DNA of 64,000 nt, taken from positions 2,299-66,298 of the forward strand of contig JAXMHQ010000027.1 in the NCBI GenBank assembly GCA_046346665.1, given 5' to 3'. Positions within the stretch are counted from its first letter, which is position 1, and every line of letters starts with the position of its first letter. The notes under the pieces are model-generated. The model was not told where the DNA came from, ran no database searches, and was given only the letters and a program-made list of their open reading frames with translations. Shown in pieces: positions 24,178-44,558 of the stretch. The DNA is from Verrucomicrobiota bacterium. Its GTDB lineage: Bacteria > Verrucomicrobiota > Verrucomicrobiia > Limisphaerales > JAXMHQ01. A program made the position numbers and the translations under genes.

Positions 24178-25733
24178 GCAACCCTCGAATCACTTCGCCG
24201 TTCAAGGCGGGCATTGCCCAGGTCGCCAGCCGCACATTCCGCCCCCGAATCAGAGCCAGCACCAAGGTCCTCGAGCAACAACCGCGAACTGATGCGCGCA
24301 CTCTCGAAAATCACCGGCAAGCCGCTGCCCGGATGCGTCCCGCCCCCCACCAGATACATTCCGTCAAGGTCCTCAAACCGGTTGTGCGGCCGCAGGTGCA
24401 ACATCTGGTCCAGCGTGTGCGCCAGATTGAACGTCGCCCCCCGATAAATCTCATACCGCGAATCCCAGTCGGCCGGCGTGATCACCCGCTCATACACAAT
24501 CCTCTCCGACAACCCGCCGTAACCCGCCTGCGAGAGCGCGGAGAGCAGGCGCTCCCGGAACGGACCGCGCTCGCGCGACCAGTCGACGTTCGGATGCTGA
24601 TGCGTCACCGGCGCCAGCACATACAGCGCGCTGTGCCCGCGCGGCGCCAGCGACGGATCCGTCACGCAGGCGTTCTGAACGTAAAAACTCGGGTCTTCGC
24701 TGAGCACGTGGCGATTCTCGATTTCATCCAGGTTCTTCGCGTAATCCCGCGCGATGTGAATCGTGTGATGCGGCAGATCAAAGGTTCCCTTCACGCCCAG
24801 GTACATCATGAACGTGCTGCAGGAATATTTCTTCGACGCCAGCTTCCGGTTGGTCCAGCGCCGGCGCAGCGAATCCGGCACCAGCCGCTCCATCGCCCGC
24901 GCAAAATCCGCGTTCACCACCACCGCGTCCGCCCGCAACACCCCCGCCCGCGTCCGCACCCCCACCGCCCGCCGGCCCGCAAACAGGATCTCCTCCACCG
25001 GTTCGTCCAGCCGGATCTCCACCCCCATCCGCGCCGCCACGCGCGCCATCGCCTCCGTCACCGACGCGCACCCGCCCATCGGGTGCCATACCCCATGCTC
25101 GTATTCCAGAAAGCTCAGAATGCTGAACAGGCTCGGACACCGGAACGGCGACATGCCGAGATATTTCGACTGAAAGCAAAACGCCAGGCGCACCCGCTCA
25201 TCCTTGAAAAATCGCTTCAGATAATCGTCGATCGACCTGTGCGGCCTCAACTCCGGCAGCAGCCGCAATAGCCGCGCGCTCAACAAATCCTTCCAGCCCT
25301 CGAACGGCTGATGCAAACACGGCTCCATCCGCTCCAGCTTGGTCCGGTTCTCCCGCAAAAACCGGCCAAACCCCGGCACGTCCCCCGGCGACAACGCCGC
25401 AATCTGCCGCTCCATCGACGCCAGGTCCGGCGTGCAGTCCAGCCGCCCGCCCGCCCCAAATTGAATCCGATATTGCGGATCCAACCGCACCATCGGCACC
25501 TCGGCCTGCAACGACGTTCCCGCCGCCTGAAAGATCTCGTCCAAAACCCGCGGGTACAGAAAAAACGTCGGCCCCAAATCAAATCGAAAGCCGTCGGCCT
25601 CAATCCGCGAAGTACGGCCACCCAACACCGGCAGCCGCTCCACCACCGTCACCCGCACCCCGGCAGCAGCAAGTAAAATGGACGCCGCCAACCCGCCTGG
25701 CCCCGCTCCCACAATCACAACATGCTTTGACAT
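24174..25733 (-). CDS. Phytoene desaturase-family oxidoreductase (CrtI/CrtN-like); first gene of the operon
   Basis: MSKHVVIVGAGPGGLAAS FAD fold; C-terminal GGGTHPGSGLPVI. ATGA overlap with the downstream ALDH gene. Confidence 0.85.
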   Translation of the reverse strand: MSKHVVIVGAGPGGLAASILLAAAGVRVTVVERLPVLGGRTSRIEADGFRFDLGPTFFLYPRVLDEIFQAAGTSLQAEVPMVRLDPQYRIQFGAGGRLDCTPDLASMERQIAALSPGDVPGFGRFLRENRTKLERMEPCLHQPFEGWKDLLSARLLRLLPELRPHRSIDDYLKRFFKDERVRLAFCFQSKYLGMSPFRCPSLFSILSFLEYEHGVWHPMGGCASVTEAMARVAARMGVEIRLDEPVEEILFAGRRAVGVRTRAGVLRADAVVVNADFARAMERLVPDSLRRRWTNRKLASKKYSCSTFMMYLGVKGTFDLPHHTIHIARDYAKNLDEIENRHVLSEDPSFYVQNACVTDPSLAPRGHSALYVLAPVTHQHPNVDWSRERGPFRERLLSALSQAGYGGLSERIVYERVITPADWDSRYEIYRGATFNLAHTLDQMLHLRPHNRFEDLDGMYLVGGGTHPGSGLPVIFESARISSRLLLEDLGAGSDSGAECAAGDLGNARLERRSDSRVA

Positions 25734-25882
25734 GTCTAAATTATGTCTAACAACAACGCGTTTGTCAATTGTTTGTCTAATTTATATCGAAAAACTCACA
25801 ATTCATTGTAGAGTAAAATATTACATTAATATTTTACACCGATTTGCGAAAAACTTCTTGATTATGTCTATGTTTTGTTTAA
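25733..25882. promoter_or_regulatory. Three pairs of 11-bp-spaced direct repeats (TGTCTAA-like); candidate CarH/LitR-type operators
   Basis: TGTCTA occurs at 25733 and 25744; TGTCAA at 25763 and TGTCTA at 25774; TGTCTA at 25865 and TGTTTA at 25876. The first unit, aTGTctAaaTt, fits nTGTnnAnnTn, which is the reverse of the reported CarH repeat nAnnTnnACAn. Confidence 0.5.
25740..25768 (-). promoter_or_regulatory. Candidate sigma-70 promoter of the carotenoid-type operon, predicted to give a leaderless mRNA
   Basis: On the minus strand the sequence is TTGACA (25768-25763), N17, then CATAAT (25745-25740). Only 6 nt separate the -10 element from the A of the start codon at 25733. Confidence 0.5.
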
Positions 25883-25911
25883 TTTCCTCATCAGTGAATG
25901 CACATCATTCG

Positions 25912-26823
25912 ATGAAGGTGGCGGCTCAGCGGACCGGGTTGTCGCCTCACGTGATCCGGGTCTGGGAACGGCGTTATCGCGCGGTGTCCCCTGCGCGGAC
26001 CGGGTCGCGGCGGCGGTTGTATTCGGATGAGGAATTGGAGCGACTTTTATTGCTGCGTCAGGCGACGGAGCGCGGGCACAGCATCGGCGACATTGCGGCG
26101 CTGCCGTCGGAGCGCTTGCGGGCGCTCGCGGGCGAAACCGGGTCCGCCGCGGTTCGAATTCCCGGCGCGCCTCTCGACGAGGGACGCATGTTGGACGAGG
26201 CGGTGGCCGCGGTTCAAAAGATGGATGCCGCGGCGCTGAATGCCGTGTTGCAGCGCGGCTCCGTCCGGCTGGGAACCCAGGGCCTGCTGCTGCGTGTCAT
26301 CGGCCGCATGGTTCACGACATCGGTGAACGCTGGCGCCGCGGTGAGATGACCGCCGCCCACGAACATTTCGCCAGCGCGGTCATTCGCACGTTCCTTTCC
26401 CAGTCGTTGCGCGGATTTTCCGATTCCGTCTCGGCCCCGGTCCTGATTGTTTCGACGCCCCCCGGACAACTGCACGAGTTGGGCGCATTGCTGGCCGGGG
26501 CGGTCGCGTCCGGCCTCGGCTGGCAGGTGGCCTATCTCGGCCCCAGCCTGCCCGCCGCTGAGATCGCAGGCGCCGCCGTCCAAAAACACGCCCGCGGCGT
26601 CGCCCTCAGCCTCGTCTATCCCGAGGACGATCATCGCTTGCCCGCCGAACTGGAGCGGCTCCGCGAACTGCTCCCGGCCGAGATTCCCATCGTCGCCGGC
26701 GGCCGCGCCGGCCGCGCCTACGCACGCACCCTGGCCGCCATCGGAGCCGAACGCGTCGAGGATCTCGACCAATTGGAGCGCGTTCTCGAATCGTGGCGCC
26801 GCCCCCAACCGCAGCCCGCCTGA
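25912..26823 (+). CDS. carH: MerR-family, B12-binding light-responsive regulator (CarH/LitR type)
   Basis: N-terminal MerR helix-turn-helix (MKVAAQRTGLSPHVIRVWERRY). Wx9EH motif (WRRGEMTAAHEH). B12-binding loop LHELGALL. The start is chosen at the ATG at 25912. Confidence 0.8.
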   Translation: MKVAAQRTGLSPHVIRVWERRYRAVSPARTGSRRRLYSDEELERLLLLRQATERGHSIGDIAALPSERLRALAGETGSAAVRIPGAPLDEGRMLDEAVAAVQKMDAAALNAVLQRGSVRLGTQGLLLRVIGRMVHDIGERWRRGEMTAAHEHFASAVIRTFLSQSLRGFSDSVSAPVLIVSTPPGQLHELGALLAGAVASGLGWQVAYLGPSLPAAEIAGAAVQKHARGVALSLVYPEDDHRLPAELERLRELLPAEIPIVAGGRAGRAYARTLAAIGAERVEDLDQLERVLESWRRPQPQPA

Positions 26824-27032
26824 TGAAATCGTTCTTCAAACCCAACCTCGCCCCCGCCGGCCGCCGCGCCCGCGCCACAACCGCCGTCCTTCTCCTCCTG
26901 GCCGCAGCCGGCATGGCCTTCGTCTTCATCCCCGCCGCCATCGCCCTCGCGATCTCCGCCTGCTTCGTCGCCTTCGAAGCCGCCCGCGGCTGGTGCGTCC
27001 TTCGCGCCTGCGGCATCAAGACGCGCTTGTGA
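26823..27032 (+). CDS. DUF2892 (YgaP-like) small membrane protein
   Basis: MKSFFKPNL...GWCVLRACGIKTRL. The ATG overlaps the carH stop (TGATG). Confidence 0.7.
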   Translation: MKSFFKPNLAPAGRRARATTAVLLLLAAAGMAFVFIPAAIALAISACFVAFEAARGWCVLRACGIKTRL

Positions 27033-27222
27033 GGGCCCTCGTTGCTGCCGCACAGTGGCGCGGGCTGCCTGTCCATTACTGAGCACACAGGTGGCTGCTG
27101 AGCCGGTTCGACTCCCGGGCCGCTCCGGATTGCCTCCGGTTCACCGAATCCCTCCCTCGACAGAGTCGCGCTGGACGGGGCGCCTATCGCCGCCGGATGG
27201 CATTACGCCTCACGCCAAAAAA

Positions 27223-27263
27223 GATTACAATCTGCTTGACCCGAATTGACCACAAGTGTAATC
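27223..27263. promoter_or_regulatory. Candidate BlaI-type operator: inverted GATTACA ... TGTAATC half-sites flanking two TTGACC boxes
   Basis: GATTACA (27223-27229) and TGTAATC (27257-27263) lie 27 bp apart, 27 nt upstream of the blaI ATG. TACA/TGTA cores are typical of BlaI/MecI/CopY boxes, but this spacing is atypical. Confidence 0.3.
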
Positions 27264-27289
27264 GTTGGCGCCAGTGAAAGAGGTTGAAC

Positions 27290-27691
27290 ATGCCTGGCAC
27301 GCCAAGGATCACTGAAACCGAGTGGGAAATCATGCGGGTGGTGTGGCAAACACATCCTATCGCCGCGTCGGCGATCGTCGATCGGCTTGCGGCGCAGGAT
27401 CCGACCTGGCATCCGAAAACGGTTCGCACCCTCCTCAACCGTTTGCTCCGCAAGAAGGCGCTGCGTCACCAGGTCCGCGGCCGCGCCTATCTTTATGAAC
27501 CTTGCGTCAGCGAAGCCGAATGCGCCGCGGCGGCCAGCGAATCGTTTCTCGACCGGGTCTTTGGCGGATCCATGAAACCGATGCTCGCGTATTTCGTCGA
27601 AGCCCGCCGCCTCACGAGGGAGGACCTGAAGGAACTTCGGAATCTGTTGGATGCTCCAAATCCCAAGCCCAGGAGAAAGACATGCAAATGA
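27290..27691 (+). CDS. blaI: BlaI/MecI/CopY-family transcriptional repressor
   Basis: ITETEWEIMRVVW...TVRTLLNRLLRKKAL is the penicillinase-repressor winged helix. The SD sequence AAAGAGG lies 6 nt upstream of the ATG at 27290. Confidence 0.85.
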   Translation: MPGTPRITETEWEIMRVVWQTHPIAASAIVDRLAAQDPTWHPKTVRTLLNRLLRKKALRHQVRGRAYLYEPCVSEAECAAAASESFLDRVFGGSMKPMLAYFVEARRLTREDLKELRNLLDAPNPKPRRKTCK

Positions 27692-30600
27692 TGGAAATCG
27701 CGCCGTTTTTGGTGGGAATCGGCCGCTGCTCGCTCCAGGCCGGGGCGCTGGTGCTGATGGTTCTGCTTGTGCAATGGCTGTTGCGCCGGCGGCTCTCGCC
27801 CAGGTGGCGCTGCGCGCTCTGGCTGCTGGTGGCCGGCCGGCTGATGCTCCCCGTGTCGCTGAGCAGCAGCTTCAGCCTGTTCAATCTCGTCCCGCAATCG
27901 CCCCCTCCGCCCGCACCCTCAACGAGGGCCCCGGCCGATGGGGCCGGATATCGCCCTGCGGTAATGGATTTCTCCGCCCCGAAAATCGAAACCATCCCCC
28001 GTTTCGCGGCGGAACCGTTGCTGCCGCCCGCGATGAAAAACCCCGTCGCGCAGCCTGACCTTGCGACCGGCCATCACCTCCCATGGAACGGGATCCTCTT
28101 CTCCGCCTGGCTGGCCGGCGTGCTGGTTCTGGGCGGCCGGCTGGCGGGATCCACGTTCCGGCTGCGACGCCGCATTTCGACGCTGCCTGCCCTCCTCGAT
28201 CCCGAAGTGGAATCCGTCGTCGAATTGTGCCGCAGGCAAATGGGCATGCGTTCCAGCCCGAGGGTGGTGGAGACCGGGGTGGTGTCCAGCCCGGCCTTGT
28301 ACGGCGTCTTCCGGCCGCGGTTGTTGTTGCCGCCGGGCATTGCCGGCCGGTTCACATCCCGGGAGTTGAGATTCATCTTCCTCCACGAATTCGCTCACCT
28401 CAAACGTCGGGACCTGCTCGTGCAATGGGTGTTCGCAACGCTCCAGATCCTGCACTGGTTCAACCCGCTGGTCTGGCTCGCGTTCGCCCGCTGGCGCGCC
28501 GACCGTGAGCTGGCCTGCGACGCGCTTGTTCTGGAAACCGGCGGGGAGGGACAGAATCGTGACTATGGCCGGACGATCCTGCACCTGCTGGAAAGCCTTC
28601 CCGGGCGGGCGCCGACGGCCGGGACGGTGGGCATCCTGGAGGACAAACAACAATTGCGGCGGCGCATCCAGGAAATCGCCCGATTCAAACCCGCCACCCG
28701 CGGTTCCCTGCTCGCCATCTTCCTGCTTGCCGCCATTGCCGTCGGCTGCCTCACCGATGCCAGGAGCCGGTCCACATCGCCCGCGGCAAAACCGCACGCG
28801 GCGCTTCCGCTCCCGCTGGATCTGACCCGTTATCAGCTGCCGTGGATGGTCAACTTTGCCCAAATCACCAATATCGCCGCGCATCAGACGCTGGACGGAC
28901 TCCCGTTCAACACCGACGGCAACGCCGTTCTCTACGGACAAGGCTGCGAAATGCGGTCGCGCAACGTCTATCCCCGCCAACTCGAAGGCATCCGGGTCGG
29001 CTGCGCCTTCGCCGAGCTGCACCTGGTGCACTATGGGATCTGGCTGGAAATGGACGGATCCGAACTGGCCCTTATCCGGCTGAATTACGCGGATGGAACC
29101 CACGCAGAGTTGCCCATGATCTACGGGGTGCACTTCAGGGACTGGCTGCGCCAGCCAACCGAAGAAAAAGAGACGGTATCGGACCCGGACACCAAGATTT
29201 GTTTCCGCTTTCCCCAGGCCGAAGGCGGCACCCGGCTCTTCAAGACGAAATTGCTGAACCCCCAACCGAAAAAAATCGTGGAATCGATCGACGTCCTTTC
29301 CACCGGCCATTTCGGCTCCTACGTCCTGGTCGCCGCGACAGTCGCGGCCAAGGATTCCTCACGCCCGATCACGCCTGGCCTGCCCTGGCTGCCGGATCGC
29401 CATTTCGACGGAACCCTAGCCGTGCGGGTCGTGGACCAGGACAACGGTTTGCCCATTGCGGGAGCCCTGGCATTGAATGCGATGGCGGCCGCCGCCCCGG
29501 CAAACTGGTCGCCGCTGTTCTATTCCGATACGAACGGGGTCGGGAAAATCCACTTTCCTGTCGGCCACACCGACATGATTTCAGTCCAGGTGCAGAAGGA
29601 CGGATATCAGCCGGCCTCCGTCGGGTGGCAGAACGAGGCCATACCCGCGCAATACACGATCCGGCTTTCGAAGAACCCTGTTTCCCCCGCCGCGGGCGCG
29701 GAATCGCAGGAGCCGCTGTGCCTGGATATCCGGCGATTTTACCATGATTTGATGAGCCGTCCGGAGGATCCGCTGAAGGCGTTTGGCGGACGGCAGGTGA
29801 TTGACGGGCTGCCTTTCCAGCTCGATGGCGAAGCGATGCTGTTCAGCACGTCTTCTTCCGAAACGGACCTGCCTTTGGAGCTGTCAGGCATTCGCATTGA
29901 CCGCAGGTTCGACGAACTCGACCTGATCGATTACGCCGGCTGGCCCGATGTTGACGGGGAAACCGTGGCGTTCATCCGGTTGAACTACGCCGACGGAACC
30001 CAGCATGATTTCCCAATTCTGTACGGAGTGCACGTGCGCGATTGGTTCCAGATGCCGTCGGAGGAAAAGGAGATCCTGACAGACCCGGACACCAAGGTCT
30101 GCTGGCGCCGCCCGCCGTTGTATTTCAAAGCTCCCATCCGCATCTTCAAAAGCCGGCTGCTCAATCCGCATCCGGAGAAGGTTGCCTCCACCATGGACGT
30201 CATTTCGGCGAAGCATCGGTCCACTTACACGCTGGTCGCCGCGACCGTGGCGAATCGTGATCCGAACCGCCCGGTGACGCCGCCCGCCCCGCCGCTGGTG
30301 CCGGACCGGCCGTTTGACGCGGCGGTCGTCATCCAGGTGCTCAACGACCAGACCGGCCAGCCGATCCCGGACGTGGTGCTGAGCCCCTATTTCACGGTGG
30401 ATGATGAGGGCATTGTCGGCAATCCAATCAAGACTTCCGCCGACGGCATTGGCCGGATGCGCTACCCAAAGGCCCGAACCGCATCGCTGAGTGTGACTTC
30501 CGTGTCGGAAGGGTATTCAACCATGGGCGCCAACTGGCAGGCGGGATCCATCCCCGGCGAGATCACGTTTCGGCTCACTCCGGAGAAGGTCTACACCGGC

Positions 30601-33117
30601 AGGATCAGCGGCGTCGTGGTCGATGAAAAGGGCCGGCCGGTCCTCAACGCCACCGTTCGCGCCGAAGCATATAATTTTGGCTACCCAAACGCCCCGTTCG
30701 TCCGTCTGCCGAGGGCGGCCATCCAGACGGATGGGGAGGGGCGGTGGACACTGACGGGCTTCCCGGAGAAGTTCCAGGACTTCGGATTGACGGTCCATTG
30801 CCAGGGCTATCCCGAACTGACCTTCCTGGCCGACGGCCCGATCGATCGCGGCATCATCGGCAAGCACGTCAGCACCGCGGATTTCTGGTCGGGCAAAGCC
30901 GTGCTGCAACTGGAGCGGGGCGCCGAATTATCCGGCGCCGTGCGTGACATTGAGGGCAAACCCGTGACCAATGCCGTGGCCTACCTCGGATTCAACCGCG
31001 TTGGCAACGCCTCGATGACAGCGAGGACCGATGCCACAGGCCGTTTTACGTTGAGCGCCTTAAAACTGGGGGATGACTATCTCACGATCACGGCCGGAGG
31101 CCTCAGCCCGCATTACCAAATGATTAAGATTGCTTCGACCAATCCTCCCCTGGACCTGGTCCTCAAGCCGGCCCGGGCGATTCGCGGGCGGGTGGTGGAC
31201 TCCGCGGGCCAGCCGGTGCCCGGAGCGAGCGTGATCTACGACGGTTTAAACAGCGGGATGGTCCGGATGGAGCACCGGGAGGAGTGGCTATCGCGAACCG
31301 ATGCGGAGGGCAGGTTCAGCTGGGACTCGGCACCCGCACCTGCGTTTCTTCTGAATGTCTCTAAACCGGGTTACATGGCACTCCTCTGGTCAACCGTTCC
31401 GGCAGAGATCACGAATGAAATCGCGCTCAAGCTGGCACCACCTTTGAAAATCCACGGATCGGTCATCGACGCCGACACCGGGGAACCCATCGGCAGCTTC
31501 CGCGTCACGCCAGGCTGGCCCCAAAACGGATTGGCGCAGGTCCGCCTGCAGGAGGAGCAGGGAAAAACATTTTCCGCGGGGCGCTACGAACTCACGCTCG
31601 ACCAGCCGCTGGTGATCAGCACCTCGCCTTACGACTACGTCCTCCAGATAAGCGCCGAGGGCTACGCTCCCGTGCTGTCACCCTTGATCCGGCCGGATGC
31701 CGGCGATGCCCCATTTGACGCGAAGCTCAAGAAAACCCCCATGATCGATGGCCGAATCCTGGATTCGCAAGGCAATCCGATGGCGTCTGCCTCCGTCCAA
31801 ATCGCCGGGCCGGAGGACTACCTGCAATTGTCGGGTACGCGAATCGTGAATCAAGGCAACCAGGCAACCTCTATCCAATCCGATACCAAAGGCCGCTTCA
31901 AGCTGGCGCCGCGCATCGGCAGTTATGCGCTGATCGCGGCTGCAGATTCCGGTTTTGGCATCGTTCAGAGCGATGACATCTCGAACCGGGTGGACCTGGT
32001 GGTGAAGCCGTGGGGCCGAATTGAAGGCGTCCTGCTCAAAAACGGCCGGCCGGCCGGCAATGAGTCCGTTTACTATTTCGCCGGGGCCAGCACATCGCAG
32101 CAAATCAATACGACGCCGGCTTCCACCGATGCCGAAGGCCGGTTCGTCCTCGAACACGTCCCGCCGGGCGACATCAAACTTCAATTGAAACAACCCCTGT
32201 CCGAACGGTCCTGGTCGTATCTCCCCCTGCAAAGCCTGGTCGTGGATGCCGGCGCGACAAACCGGGTGACCGTCACGCTCGAAGGCCGCGACGTGATCGC
32301 ACACCTGGCGCTTCCGGCCGACCTCACCGGCGACCTCGGCGCCCTCGAGGGCAATATCATGCTCACGCCGGACATCACCAATCGCCCGGCGGTGCCGAAG
32401 GATACCCCGGATCCCGGACGCTGGATGCGCGACTGGCTGAAGACCGCTGCGGGGCGGGATTACCAGGAAGCCATGAACCGGCGCCGATTTCTGCGGAGGG
32501 ATTCGGACGGCACGTTGCGCGGCAGCAGTGTAACGCCTGGAAGTTATCACGTGACCGGGTCCTTTTATCAAAACGGATCCACCCTGGCGCAGTTGGAGAC
32601 CACAAATGTAGTGATTCCCGGCCCCGGCGGGGGAGAGGAAGACAAGCCGCTTGATTTGGGCACCTTCAAAGTCAAAGCCCTGAAGACACTCAAAGTGGGG
32701 GCGATGGCTCCTGATTTTCATGTTAAAACCCTCGACGGCGCGCCGCTCTCCTTGTCGCAATTCCGGGGCAAATACGTCCTGCTCGATTTCTGGGCGGTCT
32801 GGTGCGGACCCTGCGTGGCCGAAACGCCGCACCTGAAAGCGGTCTATGATGCGTTCCAAAAGAATGACCGCTTCGCAATGGTCAGCCTCAGCCTGGATCC
32901 GGACGTGGAAACGCCAAAAAAATTCTCACGGGAGAAGCAAACCGCCTGGATCCAGGGCTTCCTTGGGGAATGGTCCAAGGATACGTTGACCGCCGATTAC
33001 GGTGTTTACAGCATTCCATCGATCTTCCTGGTCGGCCCGGACGGCCGGATCGTGGCGATGGGCCTTCGTGGACCAGCCATTATGGCAGCGGTGGAGGCGG
33101 CGCTCAATGCCCGCTAA
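27682..33117 (+). CDS. Giant BlaR1/M56-peptidase sensor fused to repeated extracytoplasmic domains and a C-terminal TlpA/ResA-like thioredoxin
   Basis: The start MQMMEIAPFLVG overlaps the blaI stop. M56 zinc motif FLHEFAHLKRRD. A TM segment follows at about aa 390. Then come two units of about 300 aa, at least six CarboxypepD_reg-like beta-sandwich signatures (for example IRGRVVDSAGQPVPGASV), and a C-terminal FWAVWCGPC thioredoxin motif. Confidence 0.85.
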   Translation: MQMMEIAPFLVGIGRCSLQAGALVLMVLLVQWLLRRRLSPRWRCALWLLVAGRLMLPVSLSSSFSLFNLVPQSPPPPAPSTRAPADGAGYRPAVMDFSAPKIETIPRFAAEPLLPPAMKNPVAQPDLATGHHLPWNGILFSAWLAGVLVLGGRLAGSTFRLRRRISTLPALLDPEVESVVELCRRQMGMRSSPRVVETGVVSSPALYGVFRPRLLLPPGIAGRFTSRELRFIFLHEFAHLKRRDLLVQWVFATLQILHWFNPLVWLAFARWRADRELACDALVLETGGEGQNRDYGRTILHLLESLPGRAPTAGTVGILEDKQQLRRRIQEIARFKPATRGSLLAIFLLAAIAVGCLTDARSRSTSPAAKPHAALPLPLDLTRYQLPWMVNFAQITNIAAHQTLDGLPFNTDGNAVLYGQGCEMRSRNVYPRQLEGIRVGCAFAELHLVHYGIWLEMDGSELALIRLNYADGTHAELPMIYGVHFRDWLRQPTEEKETVSDPDTKICFRFPQAEGGTRLFKTKLLNPQPKKIVESIDVLSTGHFGSYVLVAATVAAKDSSRPITPGLPWLPDRHFDGTLAVRVVDQDNGLPIAGALALNAMAAAAPANWSPLFYSDTNGVGKIHFPVGHTDMISVQVQKDGYQPASVGWQNEAIPAQYTIRLSKNPVSPAAGAESQEPLCLDIRRFYHDLMSRPEDPLKAFGGRQVIDGLPFQLDGEAMLFSTSSSETDLPLELSGIRIDRRFDELDLIDYAGWPDVDGETVAFIRLNYADGTQHDFPILYGVHVRDWFQMPSEEKEILTDPDTKVCWRRPPLYFKAPIRIFKSRLLNPHPEKVASTMDVISAKHRSTYTLVAATVANRDPNRPVTPPAPPLVPDRPFDAAVVIQVLNDQTGQPIPDVVLSPYFTVDDEGIVGNPIKTSADGIGRMRYPKARTASLSVTSVSEGYSTMGANWQAGSIPGEITFRLTPEKVYTGRISGVVVDEKGRPVLNATVRAEAYNFGYPNAPFVRLPRAAIQTDGEGRWTLTGFPEKFQDFGLTVHCQGYPELTFLADGPIDRGIIGKHVSTADFWSGKAVLQLERGAELSGAVRDIEGKPVTNAVAYLGFNRVGNASMTARTDATGRFTLSALKLGDDYLTITAGGLSPHYQMIKIASTNPPLDLVLKPARAIRGRVVDSAGQPVPGASVIYDGLNSGMVRMEHREEWLSRTDAEGRFSWDSAPAPAFLLNVSKPGYMALLWSTVPAEITNEIALKLAPPLKIHGSVIDADTGEPIGSFRVTPGWPQNGLAQVRLQEEQGKTFSAGRYELTLDQPLVISTSPYDYVLQISAEGYAPVLSPLIRPDAGDAPFDAKLKKTPMIDGRILDSQGNPMASASVQIAGPEDYLQLSGTRIVNQGNQATSIQSDTKGRFKLAPRIGSYALIAAADSGFGIVQSDDISNRVDLVVKPWGRIEGVLLKNGRPAGNESVYYFAGASTSQQINTTPASTDAEGRFVLEHVPPGDIKLQLKQPLSERSWSYLPLQSLVVDAGATNRVTVTLEGRDVIAHLALPADLTGDLGALEGNIMLTPDITNRPAVPKDTPDPGRWMRDWLKTAAGRDYQEAMNRRRFLRRDSDGTLRGSSVTPGSYHVTGSFYQNGSTLAQLETTNVVIPGPGGGEEDKPLDLGTFKVKALKTLKVGAMAPDFHVKTLDGAPLSLSQFRGKYVLLDFWAVWCGPCVAETPHLKAVYDAFQKNDRFAMVSLSLDPDVETPKKFSREKQTAWIQGFLGEWSKDTLTADYGVYSIPSIFLVGPDGRIVAMGLRGPAIMAAVEAALNAR

Positions 33118-33120
33118 GCC

Positions 33121-33306
33121 GTCTCTATAAAGTTCAAAAAAACTCAAACTCACGCAGAGACGCAGAGGACGCAGAGGGCCGCAGCGAAACGGGTCAGACA
33201 AATCGCTCACTAATCGGTGACCCCGAAAGAGCCGCCAGTTCTCTGCGAATCTCTGCGCCCTCTGCGCCTCTGCGTTTATCCCCAGGAAAACCAACTGCAT
33301 AGAGAC
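33121..33306. mobile_element. 186-bp MITE-like palindromic element (CGCAGAG-type core)
   Basis: Terminal inverted repeats are GTCTCTAT (33121-33128) and ATAGAGAC (33299-33306). Internal inverted arms are CGCAGAGACGCAGAGGACGCAGAGGGC and GCCCTCTGCGCCTCTGCG. The element is flanked by GCTAAGCC (33113-33120) and GGCTAAGCC (33307-33315). Confidence 0.6.
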
Positions 33307-33315
33307 GGCTAAGCC

Positions 33316-33501
33316 GGAACGATTCAGTTGAAAAGGCTTTTAACCACGGATAAACACGGATGGACACGGATAAAAAACCGCCGCACTCCTAGAATCAAAC
33401 CCAAACCAAACGGTGAGTTGAAAGCACCCCCGGAAACTGGCTTTCACCATTCTGTATCCGTGTGAATCCGTGTTCATCCGTGGTTTAAACTGAATCGTTC
33501 C
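33316..33501. mobile_element. 186-bp MITE-like palindromic element (ATCCGTG-type core)
   Basis: 14-bp terminal inverted repeats are GGAACGATTCAGTT (33316-33329) and AACTGAATCGTTCC (33488-33501). Internal arms are AACCACGGATAAACACGGATGGACACGGAT and ATCCGTGTGAATCCGTGTTCATCCGTGGTT. The element is flanked by GGCTAAGCC (33307-33315) and GGCTAAGAC (33502-33510). Confidence 0.6.
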
Positions 33502-33514
33502 GGCTAAGACCCCT

Positions 33515-33565
33515 GCCCGCGGCTGGTGCGTCCTTCGCGCCTGCGGAATAAAAACAAAGCTCTGA
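33515..33565 (+). pseudogene. Orphan 3' fragment of a DUF2892 gene (encodes ARGWCVLRACGIKTKL-stop)
   Basis: The first 32 bp are identical to 26982-27013, inside the intact DUF2892 gene. The following codons still encode GIKT(K/R)L-stop but with different nucleotides. No upstream coding part is present. Confidence 0.7.
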
Positions 33566-33617: not shown

Positions 33618-34715
33618 ATGGGCACTCACCAGGCCTCGCTCCTGCTCCCATCCACCGGCGTCTACAAGGACCTCGGCCCCGCCCTGCTGGACACCCTCCA
33701 GTCCGCAGGCTGGTCCGCCACACTCCGCCCCGCCGCCGATGCCTCGATTCTTGAATCCGACCTGGTGCTCTGCGCCGGACAATGCCGCAACATCGATCGC
33801 CTCGGCAAAATCCTGTCGCGCCGGCGCGGCCGCAAACCGCATGTAATCGCCTGGCAACTGGAACCGCTGCCGCCCGCATCGCTCAGCCCCGAAGGCGAAG
33901 CCGTCGGCTGGAGAGCGAGCGCCTGGGATTGGGGCCGCCTGCCCCGGCCCGCCCGCAAAATCCTCAACGCCCTCGTCCCGTTCCGCACCCGCCTGTTCCG
34001 CGCCCTCCAGCGATCCGCCGCCGCTTCGTACTCCCGCGCCGTCGTTCACGAACCCGGACACCAGGGCTGGGGATCCTACGATCCCGACATCTTCGTCGTC
34101 GCCATGTCGGAATGGCGCTGGATCAAAGCCGCCCACGAACACGGCTGGATCGACCGCCTCTACGCCAGCAACCGCCCCCGGTCCGACTTCCTCCGCAGCC
34201 GCGGCCTCGATGCGCCCGTCGTGCCGGTCGGCTGGCACCGCTCCTGGGGCCGCGACCTCGGGCGGCCGCGCGACATCGACATCCTGTTTCTTGGCAGCGC
34301 CGGCACGGACGCCCGCGGGGATGCCTTGCGCCAATTAGACTCTGAACTGGCCGCGCGCGCGCGGTCGATCACCTTTGCGGAGGGCGCCTACGGCCCCGAT
34401 CGCGAACGCCTGCTCAACCGCGCACGAATCGTCCTGAGCCTCCTCCGCGCCCCGCACGACCTCGCCGGCATGCGCGTGCTCATGGGCCTCGCCTGCGGCG
34501 CGCTCGTCGTGTCGGAGTCCTGCCCCGATACCAACGCCTTCACGCCGGGCGAACATTTCGTCATGGCACCACGCGCGCAGCTCGCGGATTGCCTCTGCCA
34601 TTACCTCGACAACGAACCCGAACGCGCCCGCATCGCCCGACAGGGCTGCGCGTTCGTCAACCGGGAATTGACTCTGGAACGTTCCCTCGCCACGATGCTC
34701 CAGCCTGTCTGCTGA
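33618..34715 (+). CDS. Glycosyltransferase, CgeB / GT1-like C-terminal domain
   Basis: 365 aa. The C-terminal half (DILFLGS...RERLLNRARIVLSL...GMRVLMGLACGALVVSE...G.HFV) resembles the Glyco_trans_1_2/CgeB family. The N-terminal half was not recognised. Confidence 0.55.
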   Translation: MGTHQASLLLPSTGVYKDLGPALLDTLQSAGWSATLRPAADASILESDLVLCAGQCRNIDRLGKILSRRRGRKPHVIAWQLEPLPPASLSPEGEAVGWRASAWDWGRLPRPARKILNALVPFRTRLFRALQRSAAASYSRAVVHEPGHQGWGSYDPDIFVVAMSEWRWIKAAHEHGWIDRLYASNRPRSDFLRSRGLDAPVVPVGWHRSWGRDLGRPRDIDILFLGSAGTDARGDALRQLDSELAARARSITFAEGAYGPDRERLLNRARIVLSLLRAPHDLAGMRVLMGLACGALVVSESCPDTNAFTPGEHFVMAPRAQLADCLCHYLDNEPERARIARQGCAFVNRELTLERSLATMLQPVC

Positions 34716-34718
34716 ACC

Positions 34719-35870
34719 ATGATCCCCACGTTTCGGCCCCACCTCGACGGCGATGAACTGCGCGCCGTTGGACGCGTCTTCGACAGCCGCTGGCTCGGAA
34801 TGGGCGACGCCGTCCGCGCCTTCGAAGAGCGCCTCCAGGAATTCCTCGGCGTTCCGCACGTGGTCGCCGTCGGCCACGGCACCGCCGCCCTGCACCTCGC
34901 CCTGGATGCGCTCGATCTCCAGCCCGGCGACGAAGTGCTCGTCCCCTCGCTCACCTTCGTCGCCACCGTCCAGGCCATCCGCCTCGCCGGCGCCATCCCG
35001 GTGTTCTGCGAAGTCGATCCCGAATCGCTCAACCTCGATGTCGCGGACGCCCTCGACCGGCTGTCCCCCCGGACCCGCGCCGTGATGCCGGTTCATTTCG
35101 CCGGGTTGCCTTGCGACATGGAACCCCTCGTCGACGCCGGCAGGCGCCACGGCTTCCGCATTGTGGAGGATGCCGCCCACGCCTTCGGCGCCGGCCTGAA
35201 CGGGCGTAAAATCGGCGCCTGGGGCGACCTCACTTGTTTCAGTTTCGATTCGATCAAACACATCACCTGCGGGGAAGGCGGCGCCGTCTAGAAAAAAAAC
35301 GCCGACTGGGCGGAACGCCTCCGGCAGCGCCGCCGGCTCGGCATGGACCCCGCCGCGCCCGGCGAAGGCCGCGTCGATGCCCACTGGCAATACGGTGTCA
35401 TGGGCCACGGCTTCCGCTATCACATGTCGGACATCAACGCCGCCATCGGCCTGGTCCAACTGGAAAAACTGCCGCGGTTTCTCCAGCGCAAACGCCAGAT
35501 CGTCCGGCGCTACGACGAGGAATTGTCCGGTTTGCCCGGCCTCCAGTTCGTCCGCCGCAACCTCGAGGAAGCCTGCCCCTGGGCTTACGTACTGCGCATC
35601 CTGAACGGCCGGCGCGAGGCCTTCCGCGATCACCTCCGGAATCGCGGAATCGCCACCCTGGTCCAGTTCGTGCCCAACCATCTCCAGCCCGCATTCGCTC
35701 CCTGGCGCACCCCGCTGCCCGTCACCGAGCGGCTCTTCGACGAAATCGTCACCCTTCCACTCTTCACCGAAATGACCGACGCCGATGTCGATCAGGTCCT
35801 GGCTGCCGCAAAATCATTTCTGGACGTCCCGGCGCGCGTGGAGCTGGCCTGCGGAGCCCCCACCCCATGA
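34719..35870 (+). pseudogene. DegT/DnrJ/EryC1/StrS-family sugar aminotransferase interrupted by one in-frame TAG
   Basis: ORFs 34719..35291 and 35343..35870 are in the same frame. Translation across the junction reads CGEGGAV-stop-KKNADWAERLRQRRRLGMD, which continues the family alignment. The TAG is at 35289-35291 and is followed by an A8 run (35292-35299). Confidence 0.75.
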
Positions 35871-36517
35871 ACCCGGATCCCAAACCAATCTTCATTCTCG
35901 GCACGGGCTCGTTCGCTGTTGAAACCGCCGATATGGCGGGCGACATTCCGGGGATTCGCGTCGCCGGGTTCGTCGAAAACCAGGACCGGGCAAAGTGCGA
36001 TGCGCCCCTCGAAGGACTGCCGGTGCATTGGTTTGAGGAATTGAAATCCCTCTCCGCCGGACACTGGTTCGCCTGCGGACTGGGAACCACCCACCGGGCC
36101 CGCTTCACCGACCAGGCGGATGCCGCCGGATGCCGCTTCGCCACGCTGGTTCATCCCACCGCGCGCGTGTCCACCACCACCACCCTCGGCGAAGGCAGCA
36201 TCGTGCACCCCGGCGCCCTCATCGCCTCCCATACCCGGATCGGTCGCCACGTCTGCATCAATCGCGGCGCCACCGTCGGGCACCACGCCGTCCTGGACGA
36301 TTTCGTCACCATCGGCCCCGGCGTCAACCTCGCCGGCAACGGCCACATCCACACGGCCGTCTATGTCGGCATCGGCGCCACCATCATCGACCACATCACT
36401 ATCGGCGCGGGATCCGTCATCGGCGCCGGCGCCGTGGTCACCGAAGCCGTCCCCGACCGCGTGCTCGCGGTCGGCGTTCCGGCGCGCATCGTCAAACGCG
36501 ACATCGCAGGCAAATAA
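35867..36517 (+). CDS. NeuD/PglD-family sugar N/O-acetyltransferase (left-handed beta-helix)
   Basis: PIFILGTGSFAVE N-terminal Rossmann-like part followed by hexapeptide repeats. The ATG overlaps the DegT stop (ATGA). Confidence 0.75.
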   Translation: MNPDPKPIFILGTGSFAVETADMAGDIPGIRVAGFVENQDRAKCDAPLEGLPVHWFEELKSLSAGHWFACGLGTTHRARFTDQADAAGCRFATLVHPTARVSTTTTLGEGSIVHPGALIASHTRIGRHVCINRGATVGHHAVLDDFVTIGPGVNLAGNGHIHTAVYVGIGATIIDHITIGAGSVIGAGAVVTEAVPDRVLAVGVPARIVKRDIAGK

Positions 36518-36520
36518 CCC

Positions 36521-37414
36521 GTGAACCCCACCCCGCTCATCATCAACGCCGCCATCACCGGCATGGTGCCCACACACAAGGACAATCCGCACGTCCCGCT
36601 CTCGCCCGCCGAGATCGTCGCGGATGCCCGGCGCTGCCGCGACGCCGGCGCCAGCATCCTGCACGTCCACGCCCGCGACGATGCCGGCGCCCCGACGTGC
36701 CACCGCGAAATCTTCGCCGAAATCATCGGCGGCATCCGGTCCGCCTGCCCCGGCTTGCTCATCTCGGGAACCACCAGCGGCCGCTGCCACAAGGAATTCG
36801 AACAGCGCTCCCAGGTCCTCGAACTCGACGGCGATCTCCGGCCCGATTTCGCTTCGCTCACGCTCGGCTCGATGAATTTTCCCACGCAAGCCTCCGTGAA
36901 CGAGCCCCGCATGATCCAGGACCTGGCCAGGCGCATGCGCCAGCGCGGGATCGTGCCCGAACTCGAACTGTTCGACCTCGGCATGACCGATTACGCGAAA
37001 TACCTCGTCGACCGCCAGATCCTCGAGCCGCCATTTTACGCCAATATATTGTTAGGCTCACTCGGCACCCTCGCGGCCACGCCGCAGCACCTGGCACTCA
37101 TGGTGGACGGATTGCCCGAGGGCACCACCTGGTCGGCCGCGGGCATCGGCCGATACCAATGGCCCATGAACCAGCTCGCGATCGCCATGGGCGGCCACGT
37201 GCGCGTGGGCCTGGAGGATAATCTCTGGATGGACACCGCCCGGACCGATCCGGCATCGAACCCGCGGCTGGTGGAGCGCCTTGTGAAACTGGCCGGACAG
37301 ATGGGCCGCCCCATCGCCTCGCCCGAGACCGCCCGCGACATCATCGGCCTGCGCCCGCGCACGCCGCACCCCGAGTCCGTCTCCGCCAGCCCGCCTACCC
37401 CCGATTCGCGTTGA
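36521..37414 (+). CDS. BKACE-family enzyme (3-keto-5-aminohexanoate cleavage enzyme-like, DUF849)
   Basis: GTG start. LIINAAITGMVP, ILHVHARD and HVRVGLEDN are signature motifs of the DUF849/BKACE TIM-barrel zinc enzymes. Confidence 0.75.
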   Translation: MNPTPLIINAAITGMVPTHKDNPHVPLSPAEIVADARRCRDAGASILHVHARDDAGAPTCHREIFAEIIGGIRSACPGLLISGTTSGRCHKEFEQRSQVLELDGDLRPDFASLTLGSMNFPTQASVNEPRMIQDLARRMRQRGIVPELELFDLGMTDYAKYLVDRQILEPPFYANILLGSLGTLAATPQHLALMVDGLPEGTTWSAAGIGRYQWPMNQLAIAMGGHVRVGLEDNLWMDTARTDPASNPRLVERLVKLAGQMGRPIASPETARDIIGLRPRTPHPESVSASPPTPDSR

Positions 37415-37496
37415 TCCATGGTTGAGTGCTGGCTTTCTCGAAACCGCCTCTTGCAGTCGGGGCGCGCCTCTGCTGCAGATTGGCCATTCCTGGAGC

Positions 37497-37561
37497 GCGG
37501 GCGTGGTTCAGTGGTAGATTGCGGGCTTCCCAAGCCTGGGATGAGGATTCGATTCCCTTCA
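37497..37561 (+). pseudogene. Truncated, degenerate copy of tRNA-Gly(CCC): 5' 65 nt only, no 3' acceptor strand
   Basis: It aligns to the intact tRNA at 44485-44558 with 4 substitutions. One of them breaks the T-stem (GAGGA versus GAGGG). The sequence continues as AAAATGTGCC instead of CCCGCTCCA. Confidence 0.8.
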
Positions 37562-44137: not shown

Positions 44138-44484
44138 AACGTGCCTTTCTCTTTTCGTTTCCGCACCGCCGAGAGGCTCTCCTTGACCTCCAGCCCCCGG
44201 GCGGTGTTCACGCGTGACAATAGGCCCGGCGGCGCGTGCCGACTAATATGCGGTTCCGAATGGACGCTTCGGTTAATCCGAAGCAAACTGTCGGCGCATG
44301 GAATGGCTGAATTATCACCAAACCGGCCTGCTGCATCAAAACGCGCTGGTAAGATCCAGTGAACCCCTTGGTGTTCTTCGTGTCCTTCGTGGTGAACCGG
44401 CCTTCGAAGTAAAGTCCGGCTTTGCGGTGAAACCCCCCTTGCAGTCCGGGCCCGCTTCTGCTACAGATTAGCCATTCCTGGAGC

Positions 44485-44558
44485 GCGGGTGTGGTTCAGT
44501 GGTAGAATGCGGGCTTCCCAAGCCTGAGATGAGGGTTCGATTCCCTTCACCCGCTCCA
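44485..44558 (+). tRNA. tRNA-Gly (anticodon CCC)
   Basis: Acceptor GCGGGTG/CACCCGC; anticodon stem CGGGC/GCCTG with loop TTCCCAA; T arm GAGGG-TTCGATT-CCCTT; encoded CCA. Confidence 0.9.

Follow-up and report, generated by a model that had tools for sequence, protein, structure and literature searches.

Gene content of the locus

The stretch of DNA analyzed here (the window: 64,000 nt, positions 2,299 to 66,298 of contig JAXMHQ010000027.1) belongs to a Verrucomicrobiota bacterium of the order Limisphaerales, which is available as a 4.5-Mb draft genome of 70 contigs (G000 below). Between positions 26982 and 33565 of this window, a regulator-sensor gene pair, blaI-blaR, is bracketed by two exact copies of a 32-nt sequence, one inside an intact small gene for a DUF2892/YgaP-like membrane protein and the other at the start of a 51-nt fragment of the same kind of gene end, which has no gene attached. 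The segment also holds two miniature inverted-repeat transposable elements (MITEs), and it is flanked by a carH-type regulator gene on the left and by a sugar-modification operon on the right. The features within the segment and at its borders are as follows.

26823-27032, + strand: intact gene of a 69-aa DUF2892/YgaP-like membrane protein, ending in ...FEAARGWCVLRACGIKTRL and a stop (Pfam, homologues, C-terminal motif)
26982-27013, + strand: left 32-nt repeat, attL-like, encoding ARGWCVLRACG (exact match)
27014-27032, + strand: gene end in use, CATCAAGACGCGCTTGTGA, encoding IKTRL-stop, probably imported with the insert, to judge from the topology (sequence)
27033-27289, + strand: spacer 5' of blaI, 257 nt (sequence)
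27290-27691, + strand: blaI, Penicillinase_R repressor, 133 aa, sole copy in the genome (Pfam)
27691-33117, + strand: blaR-like gene, 1808 aa (Pfam; identical Logan contig over 26984-33152)
33118-33309, no strand assigned: MITE-A, 192 bp, termini GCCG...CGGC, with ~10 near-full genomic copies flanked by TAA or TTA
33313-33504, no strand assigned: MITE-B, 192 bp, termini GCCGG...CCGGC, with ~14 near-full genomic copies
33508-33514, + strand: GACCCCT, abrupt non-homologous right junction (sequence)
33515-33546, + strand: right 32-nt repeat, attR-like (exact match)
33547-33565, + strand: orphan gene end, AATAAAAACAAAGCTCTGA, encoding IKTKL-stop, probably the original end of the resident gene (sequence and homologue endings)

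The direct repeat and the two gene ends

The 32-mer GCCCGCGGCTGGTGCGTCCTTCGCGCCTGCGG occupies positions 26982-27013 and 33515-33546 with 0 mismatches, and a third copy with up to 3 mismatches is found neither in the 64-kb window (0 expected from 100 shuffles) nor in the rest of the draft genome. Copy 1 lies in frame within the 69-aa open reading frame (ORF) at 26823-27032 and continues as GGC ATC AAG ACG CGC TTG TGA (GIKTRL-stop), while copy 2 continues, also in frame, as GGA ATA AAA ACA AAG CTC TGA (GIKTKL-stop). Copy 2 has no ORF upstream: followed back into the MITE, its frame is closed by a stop 8 codons ahead of the 32-mer, and this copy is thus an orphan gene end. The two copies thus differ at 0/32 positions in the repeat and then at 9/19 positions in the tail (p = 3e-5 for all 9 differences to fall in the last 19 of 51 positions if they were scattered), and such an abrupt switch indicates a joint of sequences with different histories rather than a decayed duplicate. 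The boundary between the 32-mer and the tail is a recombination joint. An initial sequence-only reading of this DNA had described the exact repeat and the two differently spelled ends that follow it, and both descriptions are confirmed; its view that copy 2 is the orphan end of a diverged allele and not a simple duplication stands as regards the orphan and the joint, the divergence of the allele being the part that is not demonstrated.

Several other explanations of the repeat itself were tried and rejected. Membership in a dispersed repeat family, which would have spoken against the sequence-only reading, is ruled out by the count of two copies in the genome even at 3 mismatches, and the other isolated short repeats are pieces of MITE-like hairpins. 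The template/variable pair of a diversity-generating retroelement, an idea suggested by the lack of adenine in the 32-mer, was dismissed on finding no match to RVT_1 in the genome; that 3/9 of the tail differences fall at positions other than A, and that the two peptides hardly differ, also argues against it. Nor does the 32-mer behave as a transposon target-site duplication: the insert starts with homologous gene-end sequence and has neither terminal inverted repeats nor a transposase.

The assignment of the small gene rests on its homologues (46-61% identity), which carry the Pfam domain YgaP-like_TM/DUF2892 (PF11127) and are named DUF2892; the protein itself scores 17.0 bits against this model, below the gathering cut-off of 25.3. 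The gene is single-copy in this genome. Comparisons were made with 30 relatives, all from other families of the same order, and motif surveys covered 401 genomes of the order. Of these genomes, 114/401 carry the C-terminal motif FEAxRGWCxxRACGIKT(K/R)L-stop, with zero control matches, and this genome is the only one in which two copies lie on one contig, those of other genomes being on different contigs. At least two DUF2892 matches are found in 19 genomes of the order, and every second match listed there is full-length. Among 39 DUF2892 homologues, the ending KTKL is the commonest (14), with KTRL in 6, and the end of the nearest homologue (GGA TTA AAA ACC AAA) has an A-rich codon style like that of the orphan end. 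The exact full-length KTKL protein is absent from a collection of 15 billion proteins, though the k=31 contigs could not assemble such a protein.

The segment between the repeats

Pfam matches only two genes between the repeat copies, blaI and the blaR-like gene, whose ATG at 27691 overlaps the blaI stop (TGATG). The BlaR-like protein combines an M56 peptidase domain with CarboxypepD_reg repeats and a C-terminal AhpC/TSA thioredoxin-like domain. Strong BlaI homologues are patchy in the order (119/401 genomes). In a search of 5.8 billion protein clusters, the best outside homologues of the glycosyltransferase of the right flank, the small protein and BlaI reached 58, 61 and 72% identity, all of them from Verrucomicrobiota; BlaI at up to 72% has no closer outside relative than the flanking genes do.

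The content of the segment is largely as the sequence-only reading had listed it (the DUF2892 tail, blaI, blaR and two MITEs), with two corrections: the blaR product has 1808 aa from the ATG at 27691 instead of 1811, and the MITEs entered secondarily and did not belong to the original insert. Its observation that no integrase or transposase is present holds for the segment as well as for the whole 77-kb contig (C20, in which the window lies). Tyrosine recombinase PF00589 has no match on contig C20, serine recombinase models not having been searched genome-wide, and the genome has five tyrosine recombinases on other contigs (PF00589 on C22, C10, C14, C21 and C2). No 32-mer-like sequence was found near the genome's recombinases.

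The 257-nt spacer holds an inverted repeat, GATTACA (27222-27228) and TGTAATC (27256-27262), around TTGACC motifs, which may be the BlaI operator and promoter of the module. The spacer has no match at the other loci examined. A remnant of a tRNA or tmRNA 3' end, considered because of GGTTCGACTCC-like motifs, was rejected, as ARAGORN and Rfam gave nothing significant and the best alignment of the spacer to the 48 tRNA/tmRNA genes of the genome was equalled in 31/200 shuffles.

The two MITEs, whose families have related termini, allow part of the history to be read. Other genomic copies (e.g., G000 C34:105333-105541 and C34:113016-113216), aligned with their flanks, reveal 3-bp target duplications of TAA or TTA. 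At this locus TAA stands at each MITE border, at 33115-33117 (the blaR stop), 33310-33312 and 33505-33507, so that both elements entered the blaR stop codon in succession; they are later arrivals at this locus. With the MITEs removed, the right border reads blaR-TAA-GACCCCT-32-mer, the orphan starts 7 nt past blaR and the original spacing of the repeats is 6143 nt. Homology to the DUF2892 gene starts sharply at 33515, and the 13 nt before it are unrelated.

Conserved modules at both borders

On either side of the segment lie the following genes.

25678-26823, + strand: carH-type regulator gene with MerR helix-turn-helix and B12-binding domains, left flank (Pfam)
33618-37414, + strand: sugar-modification operon of four genes for a glycosyltransferase, DegT, a hexapeptide transferase and BKACE, right flank (Pfam)

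The carH stop overlaps the ATG of the small gene (TGATG), and CarH adjoins a DUF2892 gene in 23/29 of the best loci, which makes the two a conserved pair. In no relative does blaI come next after this pair, a point in favor of an insertion here. At nine loci from seven families (L017, L036, L048 and others), the pair is directly followed by a gene for a 147-aa SRPBCC (polyketide cyclase-like) protein. The ortholog of this gene in the present genome lies on another contig (G000 C4:84632-85081), behind an unannotated 346-aa ORF, and the light-regulon neighbourhood has therefore been rearranged.

A second conserved module, blaI-blaR-X, is found in at least seven families, X being the gene of a 444-aa secreted protein with CarboxypepD_reg repeats. 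It stands directly 3' of blaR in seven of the closest blaI-blaR loci, namely L100 (G296:C101), L023 (G020:C16), L094 (G063:C325) and four others. Here gene X is missing after blaR and has no match anywhere in the genome, which makes the right junction a breakpoint within this conserved module. Judged by gene order, each border of the segment is a breakpoint in a module that is otherwise conserved in the order, carH-DUF2892-SRPBCC and blaI-blaR-X, and these modules were cut and re-joined.

We also considered blaI-blaR as a generally repeat-flanked cassette and rejected this idea, as ~20 related blaI-blaR loci have no flanking direct repeats longer than 14 nt. Without repeat-flanked relatives, recurrence or a nearby recombinase, the arrangement points, within this sampling, to a one-off event rather than to a dedicated family of elements.

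The four genes of the sugar operon are kept as a unit in relatives, where the genes upstream of it are unrelated. Within the operon, the DegT aminotransferase gene (34719-35870) covers only the first half of the Pfam profile (190 aa) and then meets a stop, compared with 378-382 aa in relatives; it is therefore either interrupted or has a read-through stop. Beyond the operon lies a second pair of direct repeats (37442-37561 and 44430-44549; 120 nt, 90% identical, 6988 nt apart), which ends inside tRNA-Gly(CCC) at 44485-44558, again with no integrase on the contig. The block bracketed by this pair, 4 kb from the blaI-blaR segment, has the second weakest GC skew on the contig.

Composition and strand bias

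In tetranucleotide distance the segment is at the 58th percentile of the genome and in GC (0.622) at the 34th, whereas both flanks are GC-rich outliers (0.656 and 0.655, ~96th percentile); the glycosyltransferase operon reaches the 99.8th percentile in GC and the 96th in tetranucleotide distance. The compositional comparison suggested along with the sequence-only reading thus did reveal a discontinuity, and it is the flanks that deviate. Composition as a proof of foreign origin was accordingly rejected, the segment being typical of its genome.

Strand bias, which is the more telling measure, separates the same parts. The GC skew is -0.20 and -0.13 in the two flanks vs. -0.03 in the segment, and at third codon positions it is -0.71 in the DUF2892 gene and -0.45 in the glycosyltransferase gene (C-ending codons) vs. 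0.00 in blaI and -0.06 in blaR, with values from -0.32 to -0.53 across the sugar operon. A strong negative skew (-0.11 to -0.25 per 3 kb) runs through the whole contig irrespective of gene direction, and the blaI-blaR segment is its weakest-skew patch. Since the flanks are alike in skew and the segment is unlike them, the flanks look like a single old neighbourhood, and the piece between them like one that is younger or was re-oriented; as evidence for an insertion, this contrast is suggestive only. Contig C20 as a whole has the strongest GC skew of the assembly (mean -0.155, independent of orientation), which suggests a long stretch of one replichore.

A proposed homology-guided insertion and its alternatives

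Taken together, these observations lead us to favor, tentatively and with slightly less than even confidence, one homology-guided insertion into the 3' end of the resident DUF2892 gene, the orphan being the original end of that gene. A single recombination event would have inserted ~6.1 kb comprising the last DUF2892 codons, the 257-nt spacer, blaI, blaR and 7 nt. The left junction, at or within the conserved 32 nt, would have been guided by homology, since the frame continues across 27013/27014 and the left junction therefore lies in homologous sequence; the frame would have been kept and the gene left intact with an imported IKTRL-stop. The right junction would have been abrupt and without homology, displacing the resident 32 nt and IKTKL-stop 6.1 kb downstream as an untranslated orphan directly before the sugar operon, the former 3' neighbour of the resident gene. 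We infer the direction of the event from the flanks: if these were once contiguous, the KTKL orphan is the resident's end and KTRL the imported one, an assignment weakly supported by KTKL being the commonest ending and by the A-rich codons that the orphan shares with the nearest homologue. A dedicated recombinase would not have been necessary for this one-off event, which need not have been the act of a specialised mobile element, and two 192-bp MITEs would later have entered the TAA stop of blaR one after the other. The 32-nt repeats could still permit a precise, RecA-dependent loss of the segment that restores an intact gene; if excision were ongoing, the empty site would read up to position 26981, then the 32-mer, then AATAAAAAC, and the circle would read GACCCCT, the 32-mer and CATCAAGAC.

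A number of findings weigh against such an insertion or limit what can be claimed for it. No empty site can be demonstrated, because the nearest genomes belong to other families; in the relatives, the DUF2892 gene is followed by SRPBCC or other genes and never by the glycosyltransferase operon or blaI, so that carH-DUF2892 followed by either is seen at none of their loci. A DUF2892 end upstream of blaI is found at none of the 29 closest blaI loci, which leaves a donor with linked DUF2892-blaI-blaR hypothetical. Of the 26 positions of the 32-mer that can be compared, the nearest other lineages differ at 3 or more, and an exact 32-nt identity is unexpected between diverged alleles and is unexplained by a purely homologous model; it would take a close donor, a site-specific core, or a crossover at the extreme right of the 32-mer that duplicated the resident copy. 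The segment is confirmed by an independent Logan contig (k=31, run SRR14234082), which reproduces 26984-33152 exactly, but this contig begins within the 32-mer and stops in MITE-A and does not confirm the pairing of entry and exit at the repeat, for which the 70-contig draft is the single supporting assembly. On strongly skewed contigs, ~10% of the 6-kb windows have a skew as weak as that of the segment. Finally, the composition of the segment does not stand out in this genome, and BlaI, with no more than 72% identity to any outside sequence, is no closer to outsiders than the flanking genes are, so that a recent foreign origin is unsupported. The sequence-only reading had proposed that foreign DNA carrying its own DUF2892 end plus blaI-blaR recombined into the resident gene; of this proposal the insertion topology is supported and the foreign origin is not, and the donor is hypothetical.

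Among the alternatives, the segment could be what is left of a site-specific integrative element, or a satellite of one, with the 32-mer as attL/attR core, a carried mimic of the target 3' end and an integrase that was lost or acts in trans, as in a cis-mobilizable element (CIME). We consider this unlikely, even though exact direct repeats do flank the segment, insert-borne sequence restores the gene end in frame, the compact unit has an att-like site 7 nt past its last gene, and the genome encodes five tyrosine recombinases elsewhere. CIMEs by definition keep attL and attR without integration genes (PMC5704250), and a second integrase-less, repeat-bracketed block (at tRNA-Gly) lies 4 kb away. 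However, the segment contains no integrase, integrase pseudogene or spare sequence and the 77-kb contig no integrase, nothing like the 32-mer was found near the genome's recombinases, the site is not used recurrently (no other motif carrier among the 114/401 has two copies on one contig), and the ~20 related blaI-blaR loci have no flanking repeats above 14 nt. A bolder version, to which we give very little credence, would make the 32-nt DUF2892 end a true attachment site and blaI-blaR a minimal, integrase-less 6.1-kb cassette that one of the tyrosine recombinases encoded in this genome moves in trans and that forms, together with the tRNA-Gly block, a class of cis-mobilizable cargo units in Verrucomicrobiota.

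It is also improbable that the fragment arose in situ, with blaI-blaR standing for long between two DUF2892 paralogs until a deletion removed X and left the last 51 nt of the downstream paralog, and gene conversion equalised 32 nt. The native composition of the segment, the vertical look of the BlaI divergence, the full-length second DUF2892 matches listed in 19 genomes of the order and the loss of X, which shows a deletion or breakpoint right after blaR, would all fit such a decay. But the other two-copy genomes have their copies on different contigs, none of them flanking blaI-blaR, a conversion tract of exactly the leftmost 32/51 nt beside 9/19 differences is contrived, and the skew and GC that are common to the flanks and absent from the middle would be unexplained. 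We find it still harder to credit that the right side is the newcomer, i.e., that a GC-rich sugar operon with a donor's last 51 nt of DUF2892 was joined illegitimately after blaR and replaced X. Although the operon is a compositional outlier, is bounded on its other side by the repeat scar at 37442 and stands where X is missing, this proposal does not account for the exact match of 32 nt to the resident gene; moreover, the operon has the contig-wide negative skew and C-ending codons of the carH-side genes, as long-resident DNA would, and no relative has DUF2892 upstream of it. An assembly artefact, in which an empty-site chromosome and a separate or circular blaI-blaR molecule, or two strains, were threaded together via the shared 32-mer, appears very improbable. 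The repeat length of 32 is near common k-mer sizes, the genome is a 70-contig draft and the k=31 Logan contig leaves the pairing unconfirmed; yet unique sequence on all four sides of the copies requires k-mers or reads that span the 32-mer, the junction of MITE-B, GACCCCT and the 32-mer must physically exist in any case, and the segment sequence is exactly reproduced by a second assembly.

The homology-guided insertion that we favor would mean that the end of a conserved gene took up a regulator-sensor pair while the gene itself stayed intact, with a readable order of events, from the insertion to two MITE hits in one stop codon. The scar is of an ordinary type and reveals no new mechanism, and dating or proving the event would take a close relative or reads. 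For annotation, the DUF2892 gene is to be treated as intact, the 51-nt fragment as a scar and the MITEs as secondary.

Comparison with known systems

The product has the topology left by a Campbell-type single crossover with circular DNA, here a circularised fragment that would carry a short DUF2892 end, in which a duplicated homologous segment is left as direct repeats, each copy being a chimera of resident and incoming sequence. Campbell-type integration is known mainly from laboratory suicide vectors with hundreds of bases of homology, and 32 nt of identity are about the lower limit for RecA-dependent exchange. Unlike in suicide-vector integration, the usable identity here is these 32 nt.

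Direct repeats, a rebuilt target end and a displaced end at the far border are likewise features of genomic islands, integrative and mobilizable elements (IMEs) and CIMEs residing in gene 3' ends (PMC5704250), a CIME being an element that keeps attL and attR after losing its integration genes (PMC5704250), along with its transfer genes, in the decay of an ICE or IME. By this definition, the repeats are present and the integrase is absent here, and a decayed remnant is not visible beyond the 257-nt spacer and the 7-nt tail. In contrast to these elements, the segment has neither an integrase nor a relaxase, not even in remnant form, and its cargo consists of two genes only; the site shows no recurrence in ~400 genomes of the order, and neither an empty site nor a circular form was observed. 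An integrase acting in trans would give an identical product, which would make the segment CIME-like.

Orphaned 3' ends at rhs, contact-dependent inhibition (CDI) and type VI secretion system (T6SS) effector-immunity loci have been attributed to homology-facilitated illegitimate recombination (PMC5361080, PMC3240628). Unlike at those loci, the two ends here encode a near-identical peptide (R vs. K) without any diversification, a regulator-sensor pair takes the place of a toxin tip with an immunity gene as cargo, and there is a single event instead of an array, with a conserved anchor of 32 nt only. An identifiable donor lineage was not found for this segment, BlaI being at most 72% identical to its best homologue and the 29 closest blaI loci having no DUF2892 end. 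What the present locus has in common with 3'-end displacement at rhs, CDI and T6SS loci is its architecture, i.e., a constant 5' part, a conserved stretch, a new end with cargo and the old end as a downstream orphan, together with one homologous and one abrupt junction and no recombinase gene.

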